64,000 nucleotides of DNA, from assembly GCA_017539865.1 (NCBI GenBank), contig JAFYCE010000078.1, forward strand, positions 27,419-91,418, written 5' to 3'. Shown one piece after another: positions 3,703 through 62,138 of this stretch. This DNA is from Alphaproteobacteria bacterium. GTDB lineage: Bacteria > Pseudomonadota > Alphaproteobacteria > CAAGCB01 > CAG-977. Position 1 is the first letter of the stretch; each line of letters starts with the position of its first letter. Below the pieces are notes generated by a model. The model saw nothing but the letters and a program-made list of their open reading frames with translations, was not told the origin of the DNA and searched no databases. A program made the translations under genes and the position numbers.

Positions 3703-5631
3703 ATGGGAAAAGTAATTGGTATTGACTTGGGAACGACGAATTCCTGCTTCGCTATTATGGACGGCAAGGACGCCCGCGTGATCGAAAACGCCGAAGGCGC
3801 GCGCACGACGCCGTCAATGGTCGCTTTCACGCAAGGCGGCGAAAAGCTGGTCGGACAGGCGGCCAAACGTCAGGCTGTCACGAATCCGGAAGGAACGTTC
3901 TTTGCAATCAAGCGTTTGATCGGCCGCCGATTTACGGACAAGCAGGTCGAAAAAGCGAAAACGTTGGTGCCTTATCACATCATTTCGGGTGAAAACGGTG
4001 ACGCTTGGGTGGAAGCGCACGATAAGAAATACGCGCCGAGTCAGGTTTCCGCTTTCGTTTTGCAGAAATTGAAAGAGGATGCTGAAGCCTTTTTGGGCGA
4101 ACCGGTTACGCAAGCCGTCATTACGGTTCCGGCTTACTTTGACGACTCTCAGCGTCAGGCGACAAAAGACGCCGGCAAGATCGCCGGATTGGAAGTCCTG
4201 CGTATCATCAACGAACCGACAGCGGCCGCTTTGGCTTACGGTCTGGATAAAAAGTCCAGCGGTACGATCGTCGTTTACGACTTGGGCGGCGGCACGTTCG
4301 ACGTGTCCATTCTGGAAATCGGCGACGGCGTTTTCGAAGTGAAATCCACGAACGGCGATACGTTCCTTGGCGGTGAAGATTTCGACGCGCGCATCATCAA
4401 CTATCTGGCCGACGAATTCCAGAAAGAACAGGGCATTGACCTGCGTCAGGACAAATTGGCCTTACAGCGTTTGAAAGAAGGCGCCGAAAAAGCCAAAATC
4501 GAATTGTCTTCCGCACAGCAGACCGAAATCAACCTGCCGTTCATTACGGCGGACGCGACGGGGCCGAAGCATTTGAACGTCAAACTGACGCGCGCGAAAA
4601 TGGAATCCTTGGTCGAAGATTTGTTGGAACGCACGAAAATTCCGTGTGAAAAAGCGTTGAAAGACGCGGGCTTGAAAGCTTCAGACATTGACGAAGTCAT
4701 CTTGGTCGGCGGTATGACCCGTATGCCCAAGGTTCAGGAAATCGTCAAAGAATTTTTCGGCCGCGAACCGCATAAAGGCGTGAACCCCGACGAAGTCGTC
4801 GCTTTGGGAGCGGCGATTCAGGGCGGCGTCTTAAAGGGCGACGTCAAAGACGTTTTGTTGCTAGACGTCACCCCGCTGTCTTTGGGAATTGAAACGTTGG
4901 GCGGCGTGTTTACGCGTTTAATCGACCGCAACACGACGATTCCGACACGCAAATCGCAAGTGTTCTCGACGGCGGAAGACGGTCAGACGGCCGTGACGAT
5001 CCGCGTGTTCCAAGGCGAACGCGAAATGACGGCGGACAACAAACTGCTCGGCCAGTTCGACTTGGTCGGCATTCCGCCCGCACCGCGCGGCATGCCGCAG
5101 ATCGAAGTCACGTTCGACATTGACGCGAACGGCATTGTGAACGTTTCCGCAAAGGATAAGGCGACCGGCAAGGAACAGACCATCCGTATCCAGTCTTCCG
5201 GCGGATTGAGCGAAGCCGACATCGACAAGATGGTCAAGGACGCCGAAGCCCACGCTTCCGAAGACAAGAAACGCCGCGAAGCCATCGACGCGAAAAACAG
5301 GGCGGAAAGCCTGATTCATGAAACCGAAAAGAACATCAAAGATCTGGGCGACAAGGTTTCCGCCGCCGACAAGGAAAAAGTCGAAGCGGATATCAAAGAG
5401 CTTAAAGATGTTCTGGAATCCGGCGATGCCGAAAAAATCAAAGGAAAGACGGAAGCTTTGATGCAATCCGCCATGAAGATCGGCGAAGCTCTGTATAAAG
5501 CGCAGCAAGCCGAAGCCGCCGCAGGCGCGGCCGGCGCTCAGACTTCCGGTGCGGACGCTTCCGCTTCGACGGAATCAAAACCGGATGAAGGCGTTGTCGA
5601 TGCCGATTTTGAAGAAGTCAAAAAAGACTAA
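3703..5631 (+). CDS. dnaK: Molecular chaperone DnaK (Hsp70)
   Basis: Contains [17 protein letters not shown] and the full Hsp70 architecture; 642 aa. Confidence 0.98.
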
Positions 5632-5658
5632 TCTTTTCTGATATATAACCGTTCGGAG

Positions 5659-5695
5659 AGGAAAATTCCCCTCCGGACGGTTTTCGCGTAATTGA
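5659..5695 (+). terminator. Stem-loop between dnaK and dnaJ (attenuator or terminator)
   Basis: Sequence ccgttcggagagg-aaaattc-ccctccggacgg followed by ttttc. Confidence 0.4.
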
Positions 5696-5710
5696 TATAA
5701 GGCTGAAAAA

Positions 5711-6868
5711 ATGGCGAAACAGGATTACTACGAACTTTTGGGTGTCAATAAAAACGCTTCCGACGCGGAAATCAAAAAAGCGTATCGCACTCTGGCGATG
5801 AAGTACCACCCCGACCGCAACCCCGGCGACAAGGAGGCGGAAACCAAATTCAAAGAAGTGACGGAAGCGTATGAAATCCTGAAAGACAATCAGAAACGTG
5901 CGGCTTACGATCAATACGGCCATGCGGCGTTCGCACAGGGCGGCGGAGCCGGAGGCTTCGGTGGCGGCTTCGGCGGGTTCAATTTCGGTTTCGGCGGCGG
6001 TTCGGGCGGCGGCTTCGGCGGCATCTTCGACGACATTTTCAGCGAATTCATGGGAGCGGCCGCCGGCGGACGAAGCAGAACCTCACAACAGGGGCAACGC
6101 GGCGCAGACATCCGCTACGATCTGGAAATCTCTTTGGAAGAAGCTTACACAGGTCTGAAAAAAGAAATCGAAATCCAGACGGCCGTCAAATGCGACGAAT
6201 GCAACGGCACGGGCGCGGCCGCCGGCTCCAAGGCGGAAACATGCGACATGTGTCACGGTACGGGACGCGTGCGCCGTCAATCCGGTTTCTTTATTGAAGA
6301 ACGCACTTGCCCGACTTGCCACGGTACGGGACAAGTAATCAAGAATCCCTGCAAAAAATGCCACGGCACGGGCAAGGTCGCGCAGAAAAAAGTATTGGAA
6401 GTCAACATTCCCGCCGGTATTGACACGGAAAACAGAATGCGTCTGTCCGGACAGGGCGAAGCCGGTTCAAACGGCGGACCGAACGGCGATCTGTATATTT
6501 TCGTTCACGTCAAGCCGCACCCGTTGTTCAAGCGGGAGGCAACGGATTTATACTGCGACATTCCCGTTTCGATGGTAACGGCGGCATTGGGCGGCACGAT
6601 TGAGATCCCCTGCATTGACGGCACAAAAGAAAAAGTCACGATCAGCGCGGGAACGCAGTCCGGCGACGAAGTCCGCCTGCGCAAAAAAGGGATGTCCGTC
6701 CTGCAAAGCAAAGGTTTGGGCGACCTGTTCGTCCGGTTCAAGGTTGAAACACCGACCAAGCTGACGGCGAAACAAAAAGAACTGTTGAAACAGTTTGAAG
6801 CGGAAAGCAACGAAAGCAGTCCGGAATCCAACGGCTTTTTTGAAAAACTCAAGGACTTCCTGAAATAA
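5711..6868 (+). CDS. dnaJ: Chaperone DnaJ
   Basis: J-domain with HPD (KYHPDRNP), a Gly/Phe-rich linker, four CxxCxGxG zinc-finger repeats, and a C-terminal domain. Confidence 0.97.
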
Positions 6869-6876
6869 TGATTTTT

Positions 6877-6910
6877 CTTGACAAAACTAAAATTTCGTCC
6901 AACACTCATA
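6877..6910 (+). promoter_or_regulatory. Conserved promoter block (copy 1) upstream of paralog A1
   Basis: cTTGACAaaactaaaatttcgtccaacactcat. A near-identical block, cTTGACAaaaacaaattttcgtccaataatgat, lies at 7864-7896 upstream of the paralogous gene. Both carry a consensus -35 hexamer. Confidence 0.55.
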
Positions 6911-6940
6911 AACAGATGCCCTTTGTTTCAGGAGAAAATC

Positions 6941-7720
6941 ATGCCTCTTTCAGGTGTTGAAGATTTTAAGAATGTTACCGCTTATCCGTCCGGACGCGAT
7001 GTCGCTACGGGCAAGGAAACGTCGTCGAGATACGCTAAAACGCTGGCGGCTGTATGCGGTGCGGCTCTTTTCACCGTCGGAATCGGTTGGGATCTGGTCG
7101 CTTATACGGATGCGGCCAATTACCCTGCGGAAGAAAAGGCGGCATTAACGGCGGAATACGATACGGCATTGCTGGCAACGATCGATTCTTTGCATAATAC
7201 TGGCCTGTCTATGGAAAACTCCGTCGAAAAAGGCGTTCTGATGCAGACGAACCGTGCGAAATACAAAATGAGCGTTAAAGACGCGGAAGCGATTATCGTT
7301 ATGAAGCACGCGAATCAACGTCTGGCTCAATCCCGTAAAATAGACCATATCAATAAACGCAGCGAAACCTCTCTGGGCTTTAGCGCGACCAGAGCCGCGA
7401 TGGGATTTAGCGGGTTGACGGTGGACGAAGAAACCGTTTACGACACGGTTTATGCCTACAAACCCGAATTCCGAAATCAACTGGCCGAAGATATTCACCT
7501 TTACCGAACGGCCGTTCAACAAAAAGCGACAGAGGCCGAAATCGCCGCCGACACGACGACGCACGCCGCCGTTCGGGATACCGTTCCCGCAGCTAAAATC
7601 GAAATCGGCAATAAACCGAACAAGGATTTCCGCGCCTATCAATCAAATATTCAGAAGCAGCTGAACGTCAAAGGTCTGTCCGCGGCGGCCATAGCCGCAA
7701 AAAAGGGTAATTCCAGATAA
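6941..7720 (+). CDS. Hypothetical protein, paralog A1 (N-terminal VTAYPSGR motif, one predicted TM segment)
   Basis: The ORF track extends it to 6878, but homology with the downstream paralog begins at MPLSGVEDFKNVTAYPSGRDVATGKETS. No function recognised. Confidence 0.6.
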   Translation: MPLSGVEDFKNVTAYPSGRDVATGKETSSRYAKTLAAVCGAALFTVGIGWDLVAYTDAANYPAEEKAALTAEYDTALLATIDSLHNTGLSMENSVEKGVLMQTNRAKYKMSVKDAEAIIVMKHANQRLAQSRKIDHINKRSETSLGFSATRAAMGFSGLTVDEETVYDTVYAYKPEFRNQLAEDIHLYRTAVQQKATEAEIAADTTTHAAVRDTVPAAKIEIGNKPNKDFRAYQSNIQKQLNVKGLSAAAIAAKKGNSR

Positions 7721-52859: not shown

Positions 52860-55223
52860 ATGCCCGAAAAAAAAGTTCCTTCTTTGCACCGCGTTTTTCA
52901 GGCGTGGCTGCTGGTTTTTGTTTTTGCCGCTTTTTGCATTACATTCGGTCTGTCATATTTTTTTCAAACGCGTACAGCCCAAAACATGGCGGCGCATCAG
53001 GCCATTTTACATTTGGATTATATCGGCAATCAGGTCAAAGTCATCGAAAACGATTTGAAAGACCTGAAATCCGATTTAAGCAAAAGTCTGGTTGAAAAAG
53101 CCCGTGTTTTTTCTTTGCTTTTAAAATACAATCCGACTTTGCTGCACAATAAAGATTTTTTAAGCGAATGGAGCAAAGCCGCAGGGATAAAAGAAGTCAG
53201 CATTCTCGGTAAAGACGGTGTCGTTATAGAGGCTTTTCCCGAAGAATTTATCGATACCGACTTTAAAGAATTGGATTTTCTGCATCCTTATCTGCCTTTG
53301 ATTAACAAGAAGGATGGTCTTTATATCGAAGACATACGCACCAGTTACAAGAAAAGCGGCAGTACGAACTCATTGGTGCAGTTTGTCGGCGTATCGCGCT
53401 TGGATTCTCCGGGTGTCATTCAAATGGGTTATTCCGCCGAACGATATGCGGAAGCCTTGAAAACGGCGTCCGCCGATGTTTTGGCCGACGATTACGTTTT
53501 AGGAAAAGACGGCTTCGTCATTATCTCGCAGGACGGTAAGATTATCAGCGCCGGCAATAAAGAGTTAAAGGGAAAAAAGTTAACGGCTTCCGGTTGGAGC
53601 GTTATCAACGATATGCCCGAAGGAAAGCTCTTTTTAGAAACGATTGACGGAAAATCCGTTTTTCTGATGACGCGGCGGATTGATTCTTATCTTTTGTCCG
53701 TCGTTATGCCGAAAAGTGATGTTTACGCCTTTCGAAACACGATTTTATTATGGGCGGCGCTTGTTTACATACTTTTGTTGTCCATCGTTTATATTTTTCT
53801 GTCGGCGTTGTTGGAAAAAATCGTTGTTCGCGGAATTGAAAAAACGAACACGACGTTGGAAAAAATCACCGAAGGATATTTGGATGAGAAAGTCGATGTC
53901 CATTCAAATCAGGAATTTATTTCCTTGTCCAACGGCATCAACACGATGGTTGACGCTTTAAAAGACGCGATCGCCGAAGCGGCCGCCCGTTTGGATAAGG
54001 AACTTGAATTTGCCCGCGAAATTCAACACTCCGCTTTACCGCGCGTGTTTCCGCCGTATCCGAATAAAAACGAATTTGATATTTTTGCATCCATGACGGC
54101 GGCAAAGGAAGTCGGCGGCGATTTTTACGATTTCTTTTTATTGGGACACGCCGGAAGCCATGTCGGCATAGTCATTGCCGATGTGTCGGGAAAAGGAATT
54201 CCCGCCGCTTTATTTATGATGTCTGCCAAGACGTTGATTAAAAACTTTTCCGAAACGGGAATGTCGCCTGCAGAAATTTTTTATCATACCAATCAGAAAT
54301 TGTGTGAAAATAACGAAGCCGGCATGTTTGTAACGGCGTTTATGGGGATTTTGGAAATCGAAACGGGGAAATTCACCTATGTCAATGCGGGACATAATCC
54401 GCCGTTGATTAAACGGGGAAGCAGGGGTTTCGAACGGATGAAATTGAAATCGGGCTTTATGTTGGGCGGCTTGGATTCTTTCGTCTATCAACAAGAGGAA
54501 ATATATTTGGACGGTGACGATACCGTATTTCTGTATACGGACGGCGTGACCGAAGCGCAAAATAACAATTTACAGTTATTCGGCGACGACCGGCTGCACG
54601 ATGTTCTGAATAAAAACATCGGTAAAACGCCGAAAGAATTGCTGACTGCGGTGCAGGAAGCGGTGGCCGGATATGTTGACGGTGCGGAACAGTCCGACGA
54701 TTTAACGATGCTGGCGTTGTCGTATCATCCGAAAACAATCACCGTTTCCGCTGAAATCGAAAATCAGGACAAGGTCATGGACTTTGTCAACGAACGGCTG
54801 GAAAAGGCTTCCGCGCCGATGAAAGTCACCGCTCAGACGGATATCGTGATAGATGAGGTTTTTGCCAATATCTGTAATTATGCATACGCGCCTGACAAAG
54901 GGACGGCAACGATCCGCTGTTCTGTCGGCGGAACTCCCGCTTTTCTGTCTTTGGTATTCCGTGATAAGGGCAAGCCTTTTAATCCGTTGAATAAAGCCGA
55001 TCCCGATATTACGGCAAGCATAGAGGATCGCGAAATCGGCAATCTGGGCATATTCATGGTGAAACAGATTATGGATACTGTTGAATATGAATATAAAAAC
55101 GGCGAAAACGTGCTGACGATGACCAAGCATTTCGGAAACGTTCAGGATGAAGTCCAATCATCTGCCGAAGAAGATAAGATTTTGACGGATGATGGTGACA
55201 AAAGCTTTGAACATGATGAATAA
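52860..55223 (+). CDS. Membrane sensor-HAMP-PP2C (SpoIIE/RsbU-like) phosphatase fused to a C-terminal RsbW-like HATPase_c kinase domain
   Basis: Two TM segments flank a periplasmic domain of about 270 aa, followed by a HAMP domain. The PP2C motifs include GGDFYDF and DVSGKG...DGVTEA. The C-terminal 130 aa have GHKL-type N/G boxes (ICNYAY, NLGIFMV). Confidence 0.75.
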   Translation: MPEKKVPSLHRVFQAWLLVFVFAAFCITFGLSYFFQTRTAQNMAAHQAILHLDYIGNQVKVIENDLKDLKSDLSKSLVEKARVFSLLLKYNPTLLHNKDFLSEWSKAAGIKEVSILGKDGVVIEAFPEEFIDTDFKELDFLHPYLPLINKKDGLYIEDIRTSYKKSGSTNSLVQFVGVSRLDSPGVIQMGYSAERYAEALKTASADVLADDYVLGKDGFVIISQDGKIISAGNKELKGKKLTASGWSVINDMPEGKLFLETIDGKSVFLMTRRIDSYLLSVVMPKSDVYAFRNTILLWAALVYILLLSIVYIFLSALLEKIVVRGIEKTNTTLEKITEGYLDEKVDVHSNQEFISLSNGINTMVDALKDAIAEAAARLDKELEFAREIQHSALPRVFPPYPNKNEFDIFASMTAAKEVGGDFYDFFLLGHAGSHVGIVIADVSGKGIPAALFMMSAKTLIKNFSETGMSPAEIFYHTNQKLCENNEAGMFVTAFMGILEIETGKFTYVNAGHNPPLIKRGSRGFERMKLKSGFMLGGLDSFVYQQEEIYLDGDDTVFLYTDGVTEAQNNNLQLFGDDRLHDVLNKNIGKTPKELLTAVQEAVAGYVDGAEQSDDLTMLALSYHPKTITVSAEIENQDKVMDFVNERLEKASAPMKVTAQTDIVIDEVFANICNYAYAPDKGTATIRCSVGGTPAFLSLVFRDKGKPFNPLNKADPDITASIEDREIGNLGIFMVKQIMDTVEYEYKNGENVLTMTKHFGNVQDEVQSSAEEDKILTDDGDKSFEHDE

Positions 55224-55304
55224 ACAAATCGCCGGAGTTGTCCGTTTCGGCAATCAAGCTTCACGTTTCCGGTATTTGTTTGAAATTTTTTGTTTTTAAA
55301 ACGG

Positions 55305-55338
55305 CGGGGCGGAATTTTTATTAAAAAATTCCGCCCTT
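55305..55338 (+). terminator. Terminator hairpin after the PP2C/kinase gene, at the head of leader element A
   Basis: ggcggaatttttattaaaaaattccgcc followed by cttgttt. Confidence 0.6.
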
Positions 55339-55566
55339 GTTTCATGTGGAACATTTTTTTCTTGAAAGAAACCGGTATTCTTCATATTTTGGATACGTAT
55401 CGGCAACATTGGGTTGCCGGTAAAGTACCTTAGCGGGTGCAGAGATGCGCCATTATCCGTTTTGCTTATTACAAACACGGAAAATATTCTCGGATAACTT
55501 TAAAAGTCAAAAGATAATTGTTCTATGTGATTTTCTCAACCTCCCAAACTGCTGAAAGGTGATTTC
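55339..55566 (+). promoter_or_regulatory. Conserved structured 5' leader (copy A) upstream of the acyltransferase-3 gene
   Basis: Homologous to 59459-59801 upstream of the methyltransferase gene: near-palindrome TGTTTCATGTGGAACA, cttgaaagaaaccggtattcttc, acgtatcggc plus a hairpin, ccttagcgggtgcagag, ttatccgttttgc, acggaaaatat, and gatttctcaacctccc. Confidence 0.5.
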
Positions 55567-57021
55567 ATGAAAGAAAAAATTTTTGGTGCGCTAATGGCTT
55601 TAATCGTTTTGGCGTCGACAACGGGTTTATGGTTTTGTCATAAAGGAAAGATAACATTTTTGACAAATTTAAAACCGGAAACGGAAGTTCTTTTACAATA
55701 TCAGAAAAAAAACGACGGCAATTTAATATCCGTAAAGAAAAAATCGAAACCTGACGGCAAGATTTCATTTGAAGTTAAAGGAAGAACACTTTCTTATTTT
55801 AAAGTCAATGTGCCGGAGAATACAGTAATAAAAAATATTCAGTTCCGCGGTTGGAAAAAACAAAACATTATCCTGAACGCTCAAAATGAATATACGGGAA
55901 AAATACTGAGGAATCGTATCAGTATAACGGATTGGTATAATCTGATTGTTCTGGGAGGCTTGGGATACTATTTGGGATGGTTTTTAATTCATTCCTTAAA
56001 ATACGGCTTTCCGAAAGACGATCCGAAACTGCCGAAAATGTTAAATATCGAATTTTTGAGGATTGTGTTCACATTAATACTGGTTATTCATCATCTTAAT
56101 AATAATTTTCGGGAATTAAAAATATGGAATGCAGGCTGGTTAGGCGTTGAATTCTTTTTTATTTTAAGCGGTTTTTTATTAGTGTTAACTTTTCGTCCTG
56201 AAAAAACTGCAATCAGCTTTATTAAAAACAGATGGATTAGATTTGCACCTCTTGTCATTTTCGGAGGAGTATTGTCAAGTCTGTTTTTTAATCATGTAAG
56301 AGCAAGATATTTTGTAGAATCGATATTCTTTTATAGTTATGACTTCGATTTCATAAAATGGTATTATAATAAGCCTGTTTGGTATATTTATGTATTATTT
56401 TGGGTTGGAATATTTTATTTCTGTTTAATGAAGGCTTTTAAAAAGGAAATTGTAAATTTATTGATGTCCATTATTACTGTGTCAAGTCTTATCTATGTTA
56501 TGCGGTATAATGTTGCCACTTTAGGAATCTTTAGCGGTTGGATAATGCGCGGTTCGGCTTGTATGGGATTGGGGTATTTTTTAGCAGAAATATATAAAAA
56601 TGCGGAAAATGCCGTAATTGTTCGAAAGAAAACATACAATTCTTTTGAATTGTTTATACTTTTATTTTCAATATTTAATATAATATTTATAAAACAATTG
56701 TATATGGATCGGTTTGTTTCCTGTATTTCTTTTATGATTTTAATCCTATTATTTTCATTGAGAAAAGGTGCTATTTCGAATTTTTTCGAAAAACCCGTTT
56801 TTGCGAAAATAGCACGGTATTGTTTATCTGTATATCTGACACATTGGGTTGTAATACGACATATTTTTCCGATTTATTTGGAAAAATATAAAGAATTTTT
56901 TCTTGCGCATACAATTGTTCCGTTTTCTTTAGTTCTGATATCGGTATGCTTGTTAGGTGTTGTCACGCATCATGCGATTGAATTACCGGTAACTCGCATT
57001 TTGAAAAAATGGTTGGAATAA
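55567..57021 (+). CDS. Acyltransferase family 3 (OatA/WecH-like membrane O-acyltransferase) with an N-terminal extracytoplasmic extension of about 150 aa
   Basis: Acyltransferase_3 blocks (LRIVFTLILVIHH; WLGVEFFFILSGFLL) across about 10 TM segments; AT-rich. Confidence 0.7.
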   Translation: MKEKIFGALMALIVLASTTGLWFCHKGKITFLTNLKPETEVLLQYQKKNDGNLISVKKKSKPDGKISFEVKGRTLSYFKVNVPENTVIKNIQFRGWKKQNIILNAQNEYTGKILRNRISITDWYNLIVLGGLGYYLGWFLIHSLKYGFPKDDPKLPKMLNIEFLRIVFTLILVIHHLNNNFRELKIWNAGWLGVEFFFILSGFLLVLTFRPEKTAISFIKNRWIRFAPLVIFGGVLSSLFFNHVRARYFVESIFFYSYDFDFIKWYYNKPVWYIYVLFWVGIFYFCLMKAFKKEIVNLLMSIITVSSLIYVMRYNVATLGIFSGWIMRGSACMGLGYFLAEIYKNAENAVIVRKKTYNSFELFILLFSIFNIIFIKQLYMDRFVSCISFMILILLFSLRKGAISNFFEKPVFAKIARYCLSVYLTHWVVIRHIFPIYLEKYKEFFLAHTIVPFSLVLISVCLLGVVTHHAIELPVTRILKKWLE

Positions 57022-57047
57022 GTAAATTCAAATGGCAATTTTAAAAT

Positions 57048-57101
57048 AAAAAAAGCCGGGGAACTCCTCCGGCTTTTTGCTTTATAACTTGTTGATCCAA
57101 T
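57048..57101 (+). repeat. Direct repeat, left copy (duplicated 3' end plus terminator of the flavodoxin gene)
   Basis: aaaaaaagccggggaactcctccggctttttgctttataacttgttgatccaat versus 61493-61545 aaaaaaagccggaaaacttctccggctttttgctttataacctgttgatccaat. About 90% identity; a terminator hairpin lies inside. Confidence 0.8.
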
Positions 57102-57479
57102 AAGTGGCTTCGGTTTTTTAGAATTTATGGAATGATTCAAAAAAGTGGAAAAATAATATGACTGCGAATGGTAAATTTGCAGGCTTAATATGAATTTTTC
57201 TCTTAAAAGCAATCTCGATTTTTTGTTAAAACGGCATTTCTGTTTGATATTTTAAAGCGGTTATAGCTTTATAGTCCGTGACGAGCCGGTAATTTATCAC
57301 GGATTTTTTTGTAAAGATAAAATCGCACGGGTATCTATTATATCCTGAAAAAATATCCCTTCATTGAAAAAACAGTCTATAACGGCTATATAGACAACAA
57401 CTAATAGGCTATATACATTAAACAATGTCGGTTAAATAAAACAAGCTACTTTTAATAGTGTTAACAGGAGGTTTGAAAA

Positions 57480-57716
57480 ATGGGTAAAAAAGAAACACTG
57501 GATAATAATTTGAACTGTGAAAGAGGCTATTTGACTTTTAGGCAAAAAGAAGTGTTAGGATATTTGAGAAAAGGACTCTTAAACAAACAGATTGCTCACG
57601 CAATGGGATTGTCCGTTTCAACGATTAAACTGCACATTTCCGGTATTTTTATACGGCTGAACGTTAATACGCGGACGGCAGCGGTCGTCAAAGCGCAGGA
57701 ATTGGGATTGATTTGA
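57480..57716 (+). CDS. LuxR/GerE-type helix-turn-helix transcriptional regulator (HTH domain only)
   Basis: LTFRQKEVLGYLRKGLLNKQIAHAMGLSVSTIKLHISGIF matches the GerE HTH signature; 78 aa. Confidence 0.65.
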   Translation: MGKKETLDNNLNCERGYLTFRQKEVLGYLRKGLLNKQIAHAMGLSVSTIKLHISGIFIRLNVNTRTAAVVKAQELGLI

Positions 57717-57754
57717 GTTTAACATTTGGAATCGGAGCGGTTTTTCTAAAAGAA

Positions 57755-57770
57755 AAACCGCTCTTGTTTC
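57755..57770. promoter_or_regulatory. Perfect 16 bp palindrome TGTTTCATATGAAACA (copy 2), following a terminator hairpin
   Basis: Same palindrome at 59459-59474 and a near-copy at 55339-55354; each is preceded by a GC hairpin and followed by a T-run. Confidence 0.5.
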
Positions 57771-58108
57771 ATATGAAACATATTTAAATATTTTTCTTGT
57801 ATTCTGATAATGTATTGGTGCAAAAGAAAAATAAAAAAATGGCACAATTTGAAACGGACAGCATTGTTCTTATCACGACAATACGATTGTCAAAATTTTA
57901 GTGGCGTTACATCGGTAAAATTTTTGTTGAGATTTGTTTAAAAATCAGGATAATCTTAAGAGATAAAGAAAATGCTTCATTGGAAATATTTCTTTAAAAG
58001 TGGAAAATCGGCTTTTTGTCAGAAGTTTTTTAGATCATTTGAAATTTCAATATGATAGAGTGGGGATATGCTGGTTGAAATCTGAAAAAACAGCTGAAAA
58101 GGAAAAAA

Positions 58109-59011
58109 ATGCCGACGATAAAAAGCAAAACTCAATTTTTAAAAGAACTGATTGCATTGAAAGAAGTAATTGATGCAGGAAAAATCAGCACTGCAGCAGA
58201 TAAAAATGGATTGAAGTCGACTAATTTATCTAAATTGATTACATCTCTTGAAAGTCGATTGCATACGAAATTAATTTCAAGGTCTTCAAAGGGAGTATAT
58301 CCATTAGAAGAAGCTGTGAAAATAAATGAAACAACAGAAAAAATTATAAAGCTGCTTGAAGTCTTATTTGTTGAATATGGTCATAGTACAAAAATGACAG
58401 GCTGTATTTCCATATATTCCGAAGAGGATTATATCGGAAGCTATTTTTTTGAAAAATTACAAAAATTTTTGCAAAGTTATCCTTTTTTAAAGATAAAAAT
58501 TTTCTCTGGAGAAAAGGTGGATTTGGATCAAATGGATCTTATTATTTCCTCAAACGGTTCTAATTTATCACGTACGCGGTCTTTGTATAAAACAGAAATT
58601 CAAAGTCATTTTTATATATCGGATAAATATATTCAAAGACATGGAAAACCTGAAAATTTAAGTGATTTGTTGGAAAACCATTTCCTTTGTATGCGCCATA
58701 GCGATTTTCAACATAAGGAAATATCTTATATCATTAAAACGGCTAAACATTTAAATATAACGGCGGACGAAACCTCTATCGTATTTAGAGTTATTCAGAA
58801 TGGAGATGCTGTTGGCATTTTACCGGAATGGTGCGGAGATTTTGATCCTTCGGTCTTTAGGTTGGATAATGTTTTTATAAGCATCAAAAAAGATTTTGAT
58901 GTAATGTATAATATGAAAACAAAAAACGCTGTTATGATGAAATCTGTGCTGTCTTTTCTTAAAAATTTTAATAAAGAAGGAGAATTTTCTAAAAATCCTC
59001 CTTTAAATTAA
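58109..59011 (+). CDS. LysR-like transcriptional regulator
   Basis: N-terminal HTH pattern (L..L.ALKEVIDAGKISTAADKNGLKSTNLSKLITSLESRL...L..R) plus a co-inducer-binding domain of about 200 aa; very AT-rich. Confidence 0.5.
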   Translation: MPTIKSKTQFLKELIALKEVIDAGKISTAADKNGLKSTNLSKLITSLESRLHTKLISRSSKGVYPLEEAVKINETTEKIIKLLEVLFVEYGHSTKMTGCISIYSEEDYIGSYFFEKLQKFLQSYPFLKIKIFSGEKVDLDQMDLIISSNGSNLSRTRSLYKTEIQSHFYISDKYIQRHGKPENLSDLLENHFLCMRHSDFQHKEISYIIKTAKHLNITADETSIVFRVIQNGDAVGILPEWCGDFDPSVFRLDNVFISIKKDFDVMYNMKTKNAVMMKSVLSFLKNFNKEGEFSKNPPLN

Positions 59012-59101
59012 TTGCCCCGATGTTGGTTGATGAGAAAGATTTTATAGCTCCATACAAGAATAAAAAAACATCTCTTTATTGCAACATCGGAAGTAACAGA
59101 A

Positions 59102-59275
59102 TTATTTTTTCGATATGTCGGAGAGTGTTTCCGATTTCTGAATAAATTTTTCTTTTATCTTATTCAGAGATTTTGAAAAATGAGGATAATCAAATTGCAT
59201 AAAAAGTTCTTGCAATCCGTTAATTTGGTACAAGATATAGTCTTCTACATCGTTTTGTTTGAATTTTCTTTGCAT
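59102..59275 (-). CDS. Small hypothetical protein (57 aa)
   Basis: Minus-strand ORF MQRKFKQNDVEDYILYQINGLQELFMQFDYPHFSKSLNKIKEKFIQKSETLSDISKK with a strong SD (aaaggag) 7 nt upstream. Absent from the ORF track because it is under 60 aa. Confidence 0.3.
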   Translation of the reverse strand: MQRKFKQNDVEDYILYQINGLQELFMQFDYPHFSKSLNKIKEKFIQKSETLSDISKK

Positions 59276-59458
59276 TTTATACTCCTTTCATCGTTGATAT
59301 AAGAAGTATATTTTTTTTATGATTTATAACAAATTACCCATTTTATCATAAACCTGTATATTTTGAGGATATTCACGAACGCAGCTATAGGAGGCGGTTG
59401 TCAAGACGTAGAAACTGGGATTGGTCTGAAAGAAAACAAGGGCGGGTTATTCCGCCCT

Positions 59459-59801
59459 TGTTTCATATGAAACATTTTTTCTTTCTTGAAAGAAACCGGT
59501 ATTCTTCGTATTCTGAAAACGTATCGGCGGCACAGGGTCGTCGATAAAGCGCCTTAGCGGGTGCGGAGCCGTGAGAAGCTCTCATATATAGCCGGCGCAG
59601 AGATGCGTCGTTATCCGTTTTGCCTATGGGAAAACGGAAAATATCCCCGACTGTCTTTAATGATGGTTCGGGGGGCTTTTGACGTATGTTCAGAAGTCGC
59701 CGGTTTATCCCCGGACGATTTTAAAGGTCAAAAGGGTCATCGCTATATATGATTTCTCAACCTCCCGAACCGCCAAAAGGCGGTTTACGGGGGATTTTTT
59801 T
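59459..59801 (+). promoter_or_regulatory. Conserved structured 5' leader (copy B) upstream of the DNA methyltransferase gene
   Basis: Begins with a terminator hairpin (gggcgggttattccgccc) and the TGTTTCATATGAAACA palindrome. Shares ordered blocks with copy A, plus two insertions. Confidence 0.5.
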
Positions 59802-60914
59802 ATGGATAAACCGCATAATGCGATTTTAAATCAGGCTCAACGTATTAGAAACGATGAATTTTACACGCAATACGCCGATATTCAGTCGGAAATGAACGCT
59901 TATCTGGATTTTGATCCCGATGTGTTCCGCGACAAAACGGTTTTACTGCCGTGCGACGATCTGGAAGGGAGCAATTTCACCAAGTTTTTCGCGCAGAACT
60001 TTGAATTGTTCGGATTGAAAAAGCTGATCAGCACCAGCTACGCCGTTGAAAGCAAGCAATATAAGAAAGGCTATCAACCGACTTTGTTTGAAACGCGAAG
60101 CCCGTTGTTCGATTCGGACAAGACGCGGACGAACGGCAAGATTTTCACGCTGACCCGCGTCGAAGCCGAAAGGACGAATATCAACGCCCTGAAATGGGAC
60201 TATCTGGACGGCGACGGCGATTTCCGCAGTCCGGAGGTGACCGCTTTGCGCGACGAAGCCGACATTATCGTTACCAACCCGCCCTTCTCTTTGTTCCGCG
60301 CGTTTTTAGCGTGGATAATCGAAGGAAAGAAGACTTTTTCAATCATAGGAAATATCAATGCTCTGACATATCGGGAAGTGTTTCCGCTGATAACTTCAAA
60401 CAAAATTTGGTTAGGGCCCAGTATTTCAAGCGGAGACAGAGAATTTATAATACCTGAAGGAATTGTTGATTTTGAGAGATTTACAGGAATCATCCGGCAA
60501 AATGAAAAAGGGGAAAACATTTATTTTCAAAAAGTTGTCGGCGTCCGTTGGTTCACAAACATTGAACACGGCAAACGTCATCAACCGTTGTCCCTGATGA
60601 CGATGGCGGACAACGTCAAATTCAGCAAACACAAGGAAATCAAGGGCATCGGTTATCGGAAATACGATAATTACGACGCGTTGGAAGTTCCCTTTACCGA
60701 CGCGATCCCGTCCGATTACGACGGCGCGATGGGCGTTCCGATCAGCTTTCTGGATAAATACAATCCCGAACAGTTCGAAATCATCGGGGCTACGGAAAGT
60801 GAAGGCAGAGGGTTTTCAAACGGGCTTTGGCATGAAGAAAGTAAAACGCCTCAGCCTTTGATCGACAACAACAGAATCTTCAAACGTATCTTTATCAGGT
60901 ACAAGGGGAAATGA
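59802..60914 (+). CDS. N6-adenine-specific DNA methyltransferase (NPPF motif; EcoRI-methylase-like or phage-type family)
   Basis: DIIVTNPPFSLF is catalytic motif IV, and the N-terminal NDEFYTQ block fits. Start assigned to the ATG at 59802 (MDKPHNAIL), which is preceded by ggggga; the ORF track starts at 59679. Confidence 0.65.
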   Translation: MDKPHNAILNQAQRIRNDEFYTQYADIQSEMNAYLDFDPDVFRDKTVLLPCDDLEGSNFTKFFAQNFELFGLKKLISTSYAVESKQYKKGYQPTLFETRSPLFDSDKTRTNGKIFTLTRVEAERTNINALKWDYLDGDGDFRSPEVTALRDEADIIVTNPPFSLFRAFLAWIIEGKKTFSIIGNINALTYREVFPLITSNKIWLGPSISSGDREFIIPEGIVDFERFTGIIRQNEKGENIYFQKVVGVRWFTNIEHGKRHQPLSLMTMADNVKFSKHKEIKGIGYRKYDNYDALEVPFTDAIPSDYDGAMGVPISFLDKYNPEQFEIIGATESEGRGFSNGLWHEESKTPQPLIDNNRIFKRIFIRYKGK

Positions 60915-60915
60915 A

Positions 60916-61494
60916 ATGAAAACTTTTTTGAATCAAATCAGCGTGAAAGACATCTGTGAAGGCTTTATGTATAACGAACTGGAAGGGAAAGGACTGTACG
61001 GATTAAACGGAAAACTGGTCATTCAGCCGGAATATCAACGCAATTACATATATGCGGACGGCAAAAAGGATGTCGCCGTCATCGAATCCCTGATAAAAGG
61101 CTATCCGCTCGGGCTGATCTATTTCAACAAAACGGGGGATGACGCTTTTGAAGTTCTGGACGGTCAGCAGAGAATCACCAGCATCGGACGCTTTGTTACA
61201 AATCGTTTTGCCGTTAAGGATTCAAACGGAATGGAGCAAATCTTTGACGGCTTGGACAAGGAAATACGGGAAAAAATTTTAAACACAAAATTGCTTGTTT
61301 ACGAATGCGAAGGAACGGAAGCCGAAATCAAAGAATGGTTCAAAACGATCAATATCGCGGGGATTCCTTTGAACCGGCAGGAATTGATGAACGCGATCTA
61401 TTCGGGACCTTTCGTAACGGCGGCGCGACGGATATTTCCAACTGCGAAATGCTTTGCAAATCGCATAACCGCGCCAAAGGAAACCGTTGAATAA
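60916..61494 (+). CDS. DUF262/ParB-like (DGQQR motif) protein, possibly truncated or frameshifted
   Basis: FEVLDGQQRITSIGRF is the hallmark of the DUF262 N-terminal domain of GmrSD-type nucleases. Only 192 aa. A cryptic HNH-like motif is encoded in another frame at its 3' end. Starts 2 nt after the methyltransferase stop. Confidence 0.6.
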   Translation: MKTFLNQISVKDICEGFMYNELEGKGLYGLNGKLVIQPEYQRNYIYADGKKDVAVIESLIKGYPLGLIYFNKTGDDAFEVLDGQQRITSIGRFVTNRFAVKDSNGMEQIFDGLDKEIREKILNTKLLVYECEGTEAEIKEWFKTINIAGIPLNRQELMNAIYSGPFVTAARRIFPTAKCFANRITAPKETVE

Positions 61495-61545
61495 AAAAAG
61501 CCGGAAAACTTCTCCGGCTTTTTGCTTTATAACCTGTTGATCCAA
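61493..61545 (+). repeat. Direct repeat, right copy (authentic 3' end of the flavodoxin gene plus its terminator)
   Basis: See the left copy; on the minus strand it encodes ...DWINRL*. Confidence 0.8.
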
Positions 61546-62138
61546 TCGGCGATTTTGGCTTCAACCTGCTTATCGTATTTTTTATCCATGTTGTTAAAAT
61601 CCGCGTGTTGCAGGATTTTTGCATTTTTTGCGGTCGCGGCGAAATCTTCGAAGAATGTGCCGACATTGCTTCCCTGCGTTGAAAAAGGAACCACTTTTTT
61701 TCCTTTAAAATCAAGCTGTTCCAGAACAGAGAAAACCGGAGGGGCGACCGTGTACCACCAAACGGGCGCGCCGACGAAGACGATATCGTAAGCAGTAACG
61801 TCCGGCAGGGCTTCTACAACCGGATACTGTTTGTTTTTGATTTCCTTTTTCGATGTCGTGTAGAGTTTCGCACCGGTAGGATAAGCTTCTTTTGTTTTGA
61901 TTTCAAACGTGTCCGCATTCGTTTTCGCGGCAATTTTTTCCGCAATGTCTTTCGTGTGTCCCGTCAGCGAATAATATACGACCAGAACTTTGCCGAGGTC
62001 GTTCTTGACTTCGGCGGATTTGTTTTCGTATTGCGCCATTTCCTTTTTGTTTTTTGCCGAAACGCGGTAAAGACGGAACAAACCGCCTATGCCGCCGATG
62101 ACGACGGCCGCAATGATGATGCCTAAAACGTATTTCAT
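61527..62138 (-). CDS. Flavodoxin-family protein with an N-terminal membrane anchor
   Basis: VLVVYYSLTGHTKDIAEKIA is a flavodoxin FMN-binding loop; 203 aa. Confidence 0.7.
   Translation of the reverse strand: MKYVLGIIIAAVVIGGIGGLFRLYRVSAKNKKEMAQYENKSAEVKNDLGKVLVVYYSLTGHTKDIAEKIAAKTNADTFEIKTKEAYPTGAKLYTTSKKEIKNKQYPVVEALPDVTAYDIVFVGAPVWWYTVAPPVFSVLEQLDFKGKKVVPFSTQGSNVGTFFEDFAATAKNAKILQHADFNNMDKKYDKQVEAKIADWINRL

Follow-up and report, generated by a model that had tools for sequence, protein, structure and literature searches.

The DNA analysed here is a stretch of 64,000 nucleotides (the window) from an Alphaproteobacteria bacterium (assembly GCA_017539865.1, contig JAFYCE010000078.1), in which an acyltransferase-3 gene and a DNA methyltransferase gene are preceded by two copies, A and B, of the same 5′ leader. 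We find that this leader belongs to a real, conserved and structured RNA family, a conclusion that leaves us with very little doubt. It appears to be a previously undescribed structured cis-regulatory leader, distinct from T-boxes, from tRNA and tmRNA, from the families of Rfam, from miniature inverted-repeat transposable elements (MITEs) and from coding leaders. It is unusual in being large, in having a conserved promoter, in moving together with the downstream gene and in its association with restriction-modification (R-M) genes. In its complete form, the leader rather probably acts in cis as a conditional terminator, in the manner of a riboswitch or an attenuator.

Two copies of one leader and their homologues

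A previous reading of the window, made from the sequence only, had described an ordered series of blocks shared by the 5′ regions of the two genes. Pairwise alignment recovered every listed block in the same order, with 76% column identity between positions 55290–55580 and 59425–59815. Within the shared blocks the copies are about 84% identical and they differ by clean deletions, copy B (59436–59801) having two additional segments of 34 and 63 nt as compared to copy A (55305–55566). The sequence CCTTAGCGGGTGCRGAG occurs twice in the window, against 0.06 occurrences expected by chance. As had been stated, the shared blocks stop at the start codons, located at 55567 for copy A and 59802 for copy B. 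From 5′ to 3′, the shared stretch is made of four parts: a hairpin followed by a palindrome, a sigma-70 promoter, a transcribed leader beginning near ACGTATCGGC and, in copy B, a terminator. The listed blocks had been taken together as one RNA leader. This holds for the later ones, but the first three (the terminator hairpin, the palindrome and cttgaaagaaaccggtattcttc, which corresponds to the −35 hexamer and the spacer) are DNA-level elements located 5′ of the transcript.

The promoter reads TTGAAA-17-TATTTT in copy A (55362–55390, + strand) and TTGAAA-17-TATTCT in copy B (59486–59514, + strand), with TTGAAA-17-TATTYT as the consensus. The two hexamers and the 17-bp spacing are kept in all lineages whereas the sequence of the spacer differs, which is the signature of a working promoter.

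Using pattern scans and protein-guided look-ups, we recovered homologues at 10 further loci, representing nine distinct long sequences, in metagenome-assembled genomes of other gut Alphaproteobacteria and in gut metagenome contigs (loci L004, L005, L006, L007 (identical to L009), L008, L010, L072 (identical to L073–75), L076 (identical to L077–79) and L081). In size they all correspond to the long form seen in copy B (273–287 nt), and they come from at least eight other assemblies and species, where they occupy unrelated loci. A lack of copies elsewhere can therefore not be held against the sequence-only reading, nor can a lack of conserved structure, compensatory changes being abundant. The closest relative of copy B is instructive: between 59549–59801 of the window and 3747–4000 of L072 the leader cores are 99.2% identical, whereas the P1 hairpin and promoter regions are unrelated in sequence (the shape of P1 and its AUCGG loop are kept) and the methyltransferase genes show 83% DNA identity. 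This difference between core and gene suggests mosaic, modular exchange at the borders of the leader.

The family does not match known elements. In agreement with the earlier failure to recognise any well-known riboswitch class, no Rfam 15 family (4227 models) reached its gathering threshold in the window, L004, L007, L008 or L031. Permissive Rfam scans gave only sub-threshold matches, located at the upstream hairpin and promoter end in copies A and B, and over the terminator for a single match in L076. The T-box model did not match copies A and B even at E ≤ 10, and ARAGORN predicted 0 tRNA or tmRNA genes in the window. No match was obtained by BLASTN of copy B against plasmid and phage collections. 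Three scans of viral contigs with the conserved blocks produced nothing besides a false positive (L041) that the covariance model rejected; a pattern match in Pontibacterium (L003) was likewise attributed to chance. Literature searches found no description of the motif. In a repeat scan of 54900–61900, neither copy A nor copy B was flanked by inverted repeats, as opposed to what is expected of MITEs or elements derived from insertion sequences. A small open reading frame (ORF) or leader peptide was also discarded: the ATG in GAGAUGCG sits in helix P4 without a spaced Shine-Dalgarno sequence, the frames diverge by indels, L006 uses another frame, and no ORF conserved in frame within the leader was seen on reading the homologues.

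One further candidate, L031 7962–8164, scored only 16.7 bits with the covariance model and was rejected as a distant relative. This unit of about 200 nt is a different one; its promoter context is similar, its terminator is strong, and a gene for a phage-type integrase lies about 200 nt 3′ of it. Among Rfam families it comes closest to sRNA-Xcc1, with a sub-threshold match (33.8 bits, below the gathering score of 53).

Fold of the leader, terminator and candidate antiterminator

The full-length leader RNA of copy B (59520–59801, + strand, about 280 nt) consists of a 5′ hairpin (P1), a single strand, a closing helix in three segments (X1–X3), a core of five helices (P4–P8) and an intrinsic terminator. 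P1 (59522–59546, strands 59522–59531 and 59537–59546, + strand) has an RYNGG-type loop. On its 3′ side lies a conserved, invariant single strand (GCCUUAGCGGGUGC / AAAGUGCCUUAGCGGGUGC); in copy B the conserved 5′ strand is GCGCCUUAGCGGGUGCGGAG (59549–59568, + strand), a candidate antiterminator that includes the 5′ side of X1, where GGAG pairs with CUCC. The 5′ strands of X2 (UGAGAA) and X3 (AUAUAUAGC) follow at 59572–59592 (+ strand). The core (59593–59734, + strand) comprises P4, which carries a GAGA tetraloop here and in most lineages, P5, P6, with its invariant CCCCGA/UCGGGG stem, and P7, which encloses an invariant internal loop (GUAUGUUCAGAA / UUUAAAG) and the variable hairpin P8. The 3′ strands of X3 (GCUAUAUAU), X2 (UUCUCA) and X1 (CUCC) at 59742–59765 (+ strand) lead into the terminator.

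The long-range closing helix was spotted in the minimum free energy (MFE) folds of the homologues. Its sequence differs in every lineage, and complementarity is always kept. For X3, the two strands read AUAUAUAGC / GCUAUAUAU in copy B, AGCUAUAC / GUAUAGCU in L004, GGUUACAC / GUGUAACU in L007, UAAUCUUACC / GGUAAGAUUA in L008, CAACAAG / CUUGUUG in L006, UACAUCAG / CUGAUGUA in L076 and UAAUAGAAC / GUUCUAUUA in L081. The corresponding X2 strands are UGAGAA / UUCUCA (copy B), AGAAAAA / UUUUUCU (L004), AAGAAA / UUUCUU (L007), AGAACA / UGUUCU (L008), AGAAG / CUUCU (L006) and UCAUAA / UUAUGA (L081).

In a model-guided alignment of the nine long sequences, 97.6% of the cells pair, and 37 of the 78 base pairs are changed on both sides, against 4–11 in slid controls; none of 500 shuffles reached this value. 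Compensatory changes affect 6 of 7 pairs in X2 and all 7 in X3. They also affect 8 of 10 pairs in P1, with pairing kept over nine lineages: P1 is the stem cggcaac/gttgccg (A) and cggcggc/gtcgtcg (B), whose compensated differences had already been noticed in the window. The nine-sequence alignment was fitted to the model and is thus biased towards structure, but two checks are independent of it, an earlier MAFFT-based count and a comparison of cognate with non-cognate duplexes. In the latter, the 5′ block of the closing helix binds the 3′ block of its own lineage at −17 to −23 kcal/mol and those of other lineages at −7 to −16 kcal/mol. The folded domain is therefore supported by covariation, the double-changed pairs and the duplex test being in agreement. 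Copy B is also more stable than shuffled controls (MFE z = −7.2), whereas the value for copy A is modest (z = −2.1). Two local hairpins, P3 and P9, had no covariation support once the long-range helix was recognised and are not retained as established features. The suggestion of a cis-acting structured RNA such as a riboswitch or an attenuator gains support from copies found 5′ of different genes in other genomes, and from a structure conserved through abundant compensatory change.

All long-form leaders end with a GC-rich stem of 6–7 bp (GACCGCYGAAAGGCGGUC or a variant) followed by U7–8. The terminator of copy B (59761–59801, + strand) has an inner hairpin (AACCGCC/GGCGGUU) and an outer stem (CCUCCCG/CGGGGGA) that includes the Shine-Dalgarno sequence, and its U7 runs straight into the ATG. 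In copy B, L072, L076, L081 and L008, the outer stem pairs CUCCC with the GGGGA Shine-Dalgarno sequence and the U-run follows. This outer stem competes with X1 for CUCC; in the R-M versions, one switch would thus control both termination and translation.

Complementarity links the invariant 5′ strand GCCUUAGCGGGUGCGGAG to CUCCCCGACCGCUGAAAGGC, a segment made up of the X1 3′ side, the 5′ half and loop of the terminator, and the first bases of the terminator 3′ half. The predicted duplex amounts to about −22 kcal/mol, and 91.7% of its cells pair, against 31–60% in slid controls. In L076, the most divergent sequence, both strands have been rewritten (GCCUG/CAGGC, AAG/CUU, GGC/GCC), and the 5′ strand binds its own 3′ strand at −23.2 kcal/mol, compared with −18, −14 and −11 kcal/mol for those of other lineages. 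Copy A keeps the pairing of its 5′ strand through a double change from G-C to A-U, despite a destroyed terminator. Judging from these sequences, an antiterminator pairing between the two strands is plausible.

Downstream genes, proposed mechanism and alternative readings

In all lineages, a co-oriented ORF starts 0–30 nt after the U-run, too short a distance to accommodate a further promoter. Five unrelated kinds of genes are found downstream. Copy A precedes the acyltransferase-3 gene (55567–57021, + strand; PF01757, 2.1e-20), whose contig also bears genes for Tim44, SecB, Rho and the like. Copy B is fused to the gene of an EcoRI-family Type II DNA methyltransferase (59802–60914, + strand), followed by a truncated gene for a GmrSD_N-type Type II restriction endonuclease (60916–61494, + strand); PADLOC assigns both members of this pair to Type II, as methyltransferase and restriction enzyme. 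The same operon of methyltransferase and GmrSD_N-HNH nuclease follows the leader in the window, L072, L076 and L081, in four different genomic neighbourhoods. In L008, the leader is followed by the gene of a 1603-aa Type ISP R-M enzyme, with MobC-like and dGTPase defence genes nearby. A lipoprotein gene and an HNH_3 protein gene are found downstream in L006, L007 and L010, and genes for a 199-aa protein of no known family and a zinc-ribbon/DUF805 protein in L004 and L005, at two different loci. Since leader and R-M genes occur together in four neighbourhoods, and leader and 199-aa gene in two, leader and gene travel together, as one unit. No leader accompanies a Bacteroidota-like methyltransferase homologue (67% identity). 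In L004, L006, L007 and L010 the unit lies just 3′ of ctrA, the identity of CtrA being confirmed. No leader was found 3′ of ctrA in five further CtrA variants, representing about 50 loci, so that only a narrow subclade has it at this position.

The sequences show the consensus of the promoter, the fold, the terminator and how the genes are arranged; switching, its direction and action in cis are inferred. The unit would be a self-contained cassette in which a sigma-70 promoter, a structured leader of about 275 nt and an intrinsic terminator abut the start of the downstream gene. The most economical model would be a switch of the ON type, in which a stabilised closing helix prevents termination. 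In the ON state, the conserved 5′ strand would pair with CUCCCCGACCGCUGAAAGGC and extend the closing helix outward, its segment GCCUUAGCGG being partnered with CCGCUGAAAGGC; the terminator could then not form, the Shine-Dalgarno sequence would be freed in the R-M versions and the downstream gene would be expressed. In the OFF state, the terminator would form and transcription would stop. The core would read a signal, for which a small ligand, a protein and an RNA are all conceivable. Copy B would be the full version of this device, driving the Type II R-M operon.

Several features of a riboswitch are present, namely a fold supported by covariation, a position in the 5′ untranslated region (UTR) directly before a co-oriented ORF, and an expression platform made of terminator and Shine-Dalgarno sequence; functionally coherent downstream genes are missing from the loci compared. 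A number of observations weigh against the conditional terminator. Covariation in the antiterminator is weak, with two pairs, matched by 56 of 500 shuffles; it is not significant because the strands are nearly invariant. The antiterminator duplex is only modestly significant against shuffled sequences (p about 0.01–0.09), it is the terminator and not the antiterminator that appears in the long-form MFE folds, and the downstream genes share no metabolic theme that would point to a ligand. Finally, only about 10 distinct members of the family are known, all from a narrow clade. A small-molecule riboswitch in the strict sense is accordingly put forward as a tentative possibility, which we find doubtful. 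Still less likely is a new riboswitch class for mobile defence and surface-variation genes. Its core of about 200 nt would bind a signal from the cell or from an infection, such as SAM or SAH, a second messenger of nucleotide type or a metabolite induced by phage, and would license the expression of R-M enzymes, O-acyltransferase and lipoproteins; the conserved leader might, in addition, act as an anchor for recombination that exchanges the downstream genes.

The leader could instead be a free-standing small RNA gene acting in trans or as a protein partner, with accessory genes settled at a favoured insertion or recombination site and expressed by leaky read-through. Such a gene would have a strong promoter of its own and a canonical terminator, as observed, and would account for MFE folds that keep the terminator, for the single conserved position behind ctrA with different genes following it (in relatives, ctrA is directly followed by aas), and for the contrast between nearly identical cores and divergent methyltransferase genes in copy B and L072, which suggests exchange at the leader borders. 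We nevertheless regard it as unlikely. The following gene is always co-oriented and immediate, five lineages have the Shine-Dalgarno sequence in the terminator stem and the ATG directly after the U-run, and leader and gene move together to unrelated loci. Moreover, no integrase gene adjoins any leader copy, and copy A retains the promoter and the 5′ UTR and not the core, which is what one would expect of a leader whose main task is to drive the gene.

A cassette of constitutive promoter and attenuator without sensing, that is, a portable module damping or insulating acquired genes and structured for RNA stability, would be in keeping with the heterogeneous downstream genes, with the mobile context of L008 and with alternative local hairpins (P3, P9) devoid of covariation support. 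However, nine conserved helices over 275 nt far exceed the needs of damping or stability. The junction nucleotides (GUAUGUUCAGAA, UUUAAAG, CCCCGA/UCGGGG) are invariant across sequences that are about 70% identical, and the complementarity between 5′ strand and terminator is kept in the divergent L076; we find this explanation improbable. A mere trace of a recent local segmental duplication, devoid of function, is hardly credible. The locus is a mosaic, in which the 3′ fragment of a GerE-type gene, the hairpin and the palindrome are repeated and a 72-nt repeat is present, and part of the similarity within the window does come from a local duplication that includes this gene remnant, but not the whole of it. 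Homologues at unrelated loci of other species and compensatory changes that preserve the helices contradict such an origin, as does the pattern of about 84% identity interrupted by clean deletions.

The pbuE/ydhL adenine ON-switch is a terminating riboswitch in which a P1-type closing helix competes with an intrinsic terminator. The leader resembles riboswitches of this type in its 5′ position, in its domain closed by a long-range helix whose 3′ strand enters the terminator, in the gene that comes right after the terminator and, in some versions, in the sequestered Shine-Dalgarno sequence. In contrast, with about 275 nt and nine helices it is much larger than purine aptamers, it fronts R-M and surface genes and not one pathway, and its promoter is conserved as part of the unit. 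As in T-boxes, a long leader (250–300 nt) with multiple helices appears to follow a terminator/antiterminator logic, and the terminator 5′ half has a conserved strand as its pairing partner. However, there is no Rfam T-box match, this strand is located at the 5′ end and not beside the terminator, and neither aminoacyl-tRNA nor amino-acid genes are found downstream.

JUMPStart/ops with RfaH, the EAR RNA of eps operons and the LoaP leaders are cases in which horizontally acquired operons rely on specialised antitermination. By analogy, terminator read-through would be the controlled step here as well, one leader being shared by unrelated accessory operons of surface-modification or mobile-element genes. 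As opposed to these systems, the leader has no ops sequence, no NusG paralogue was seen nearby, and it is a large folded RNA with an adjacent terminator and not a short recruitment site. Control of R-M by C proteins is similar in that R-M genes on mobile units have dedicated control, but C systems combine a DNA operator with a small helix-turn-helix (HTH) protein, whereas here an RNA leader travels with the operon; no C gene adjoins the R-M units of L072, L076 and L081. Regulation of R-M and surface-modifying genes is usually ascribed to proteins or phase variation. If confirmed, the leader would add a large orphan RNA to the bacterial cis-regulators and link RNA control to both kinds of genes. 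To our knowledge, it would be the first RNA sensor to control restriction-modification, should the sensor reading be true. With promoter, sensor and stop signal combined in one unit that moves along with its gene, the leader suggests how mobile defence genes can bring their own regulation. A template of about 300 nt is a concrete target for in vitro work; the host clade, uncultured gut Alphaproteobacteria, is not yet genetically tractable.

Copy A, genomic settings and local history of the locus

The short-form leader RNA of copy A (55397–55566, + strand) scores 90.6 bits with the covariance model, against 259.9 bits for copy B and 260–320 bits for the long forms in general. A 34-nt deletion between repeated GGTGC motifs has removed P3 and the 5′ strands of X2 and X3, and a 63-nt deletion has removed most of P6 and the P7–P8 region. 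The terminator is degraded (−1.4 kcal/mol). Copy A retains the promoter, P1 (55398–55422, strands 55398–55407 and 55413–55422, + strand), the conserved 5′ strand ACCUUAGCGGGUGCAGAG (55427–55444, + strand; complementary to 55549–55563), P4, P5 and a 3′ strand pairing over the Shine-Dalgarno sequence; this 3′ strand (55540–55566, + strand) holds the degenerate terminator and the Shine-Dalgarno sequence AAGGUG. Copy A is probably a decayed derivative that lacks about 100 nt of core as well as the terminator, and probably serves only as promoter and 5′ UTR of the acyltransferase gene.

Some of the genes next to the leaders deserve mention. The 192 aa of the window nuclease correspond to positions 4–184 of a 372-position profile, whereas the L072 homologue has 398 aa with GmrSD_N and HNH domains. 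An HNH-like stretch is present in a different frame at 61305–61490; the nuclease thus appears to be frameshifted in this strain, leaving the methylase orphan. In L008, the region 5271–7581, located 5′ of the leader, contains a dGTPase-type defence gene (PADLOC, 8e-76), an unannotated gene of 259 aa, a MobC-like gene and, as far as can be read from its sequence, an apparent AlpA-like gene; it looks like a small mobile defence island.

At the post-ctrA position of L004, L006, L007 and L010, the leader, variable genes and an ABC-F gene are found between ctrA and an MFS-acyltransferase-AMP-binding (aas-like) gene. In close relatives (L042–L051, L062–L071), aas lies within about 70 nt of ctrA, the mark of a variable site of insertion. 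In a single species, ten independent assemblies (L052–L061) all break 30–1100 nt 3′ of ctrA, suggesting a repeated or strain-variable sequence; the covariance model detected no leader in the sequence that they retain.

Upstream of the promoters, a GC-rich terminator-like hairpin is common to 55306–55337, 57734–57764 and 59440–59457. It is directly followed by a 16-bp palindrome with the consensus TGTTTCAT(A/G)TG(A/G)AACA, and the pattern TGTTTCATRTGRAACA has three sites in the window (55338, 57765 and 59459), against 0.13 chance matches expected. For copy A, the hairpin (55306–55337, + strand) lies 3′ of a SpoIIE/HATPase gene and has a 14-bp stem followed by TGTTTCAT; the palindrome TGTTTCATGTGGAACA (55338–55353, no strand assigned) is a species-specific candidate operator at the DNA level. 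For copy B, the hairpin is associated with the perfect palindrome TGTTTCATATGAAACA (together 59440–59474, + strand). A third hairpin and palindrome (57734–57780, + strand) lies 3′ of a 78-aa GerE/LuxR-type HTH gene (57480–57716, + strand). This site was discarded as a third leader copy: only the hairpin and the palindrome are common, and no leader RNA follows. The three occurrences of the composite lie within 4.2 kb and are the only ones in the 64-kb window; their stem sequences differ and pairing is kept. The palindrome was not found at any of the other-species loci compared. Its TGT-N10-ACA shape suggests a possible operator for the GerE-type protein encoded next to it; alternatively, the composite may act as a terminator or insulator module.

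At 55238–55277, just 3′ of the SpoIIE/HATPase gene, lies a 40-nt remnant of the GerE gene 3′ end, 83% identical to 57609–57648. This remnant indicates that the GerE 3′ end, the hairpin and the palindrome were duplicated together upstream of copy A; in such a mosaic of duplications, part of the similarity between copies A and B upstream of the promoter is due to local duplication. A 72-nt direct repeat (57045–57116 and 61490–61561, 85% identity) looks like the scar of an insertion or an att-type duplication, no integrase being seen. It comprises a terminator hairpin and the last codons of a minus-strand flavodoxin gene, and its two copies bracket a 4.4-kb segment containing the GerE and LysR genes, a small ORF, copy B and the R-M genes.

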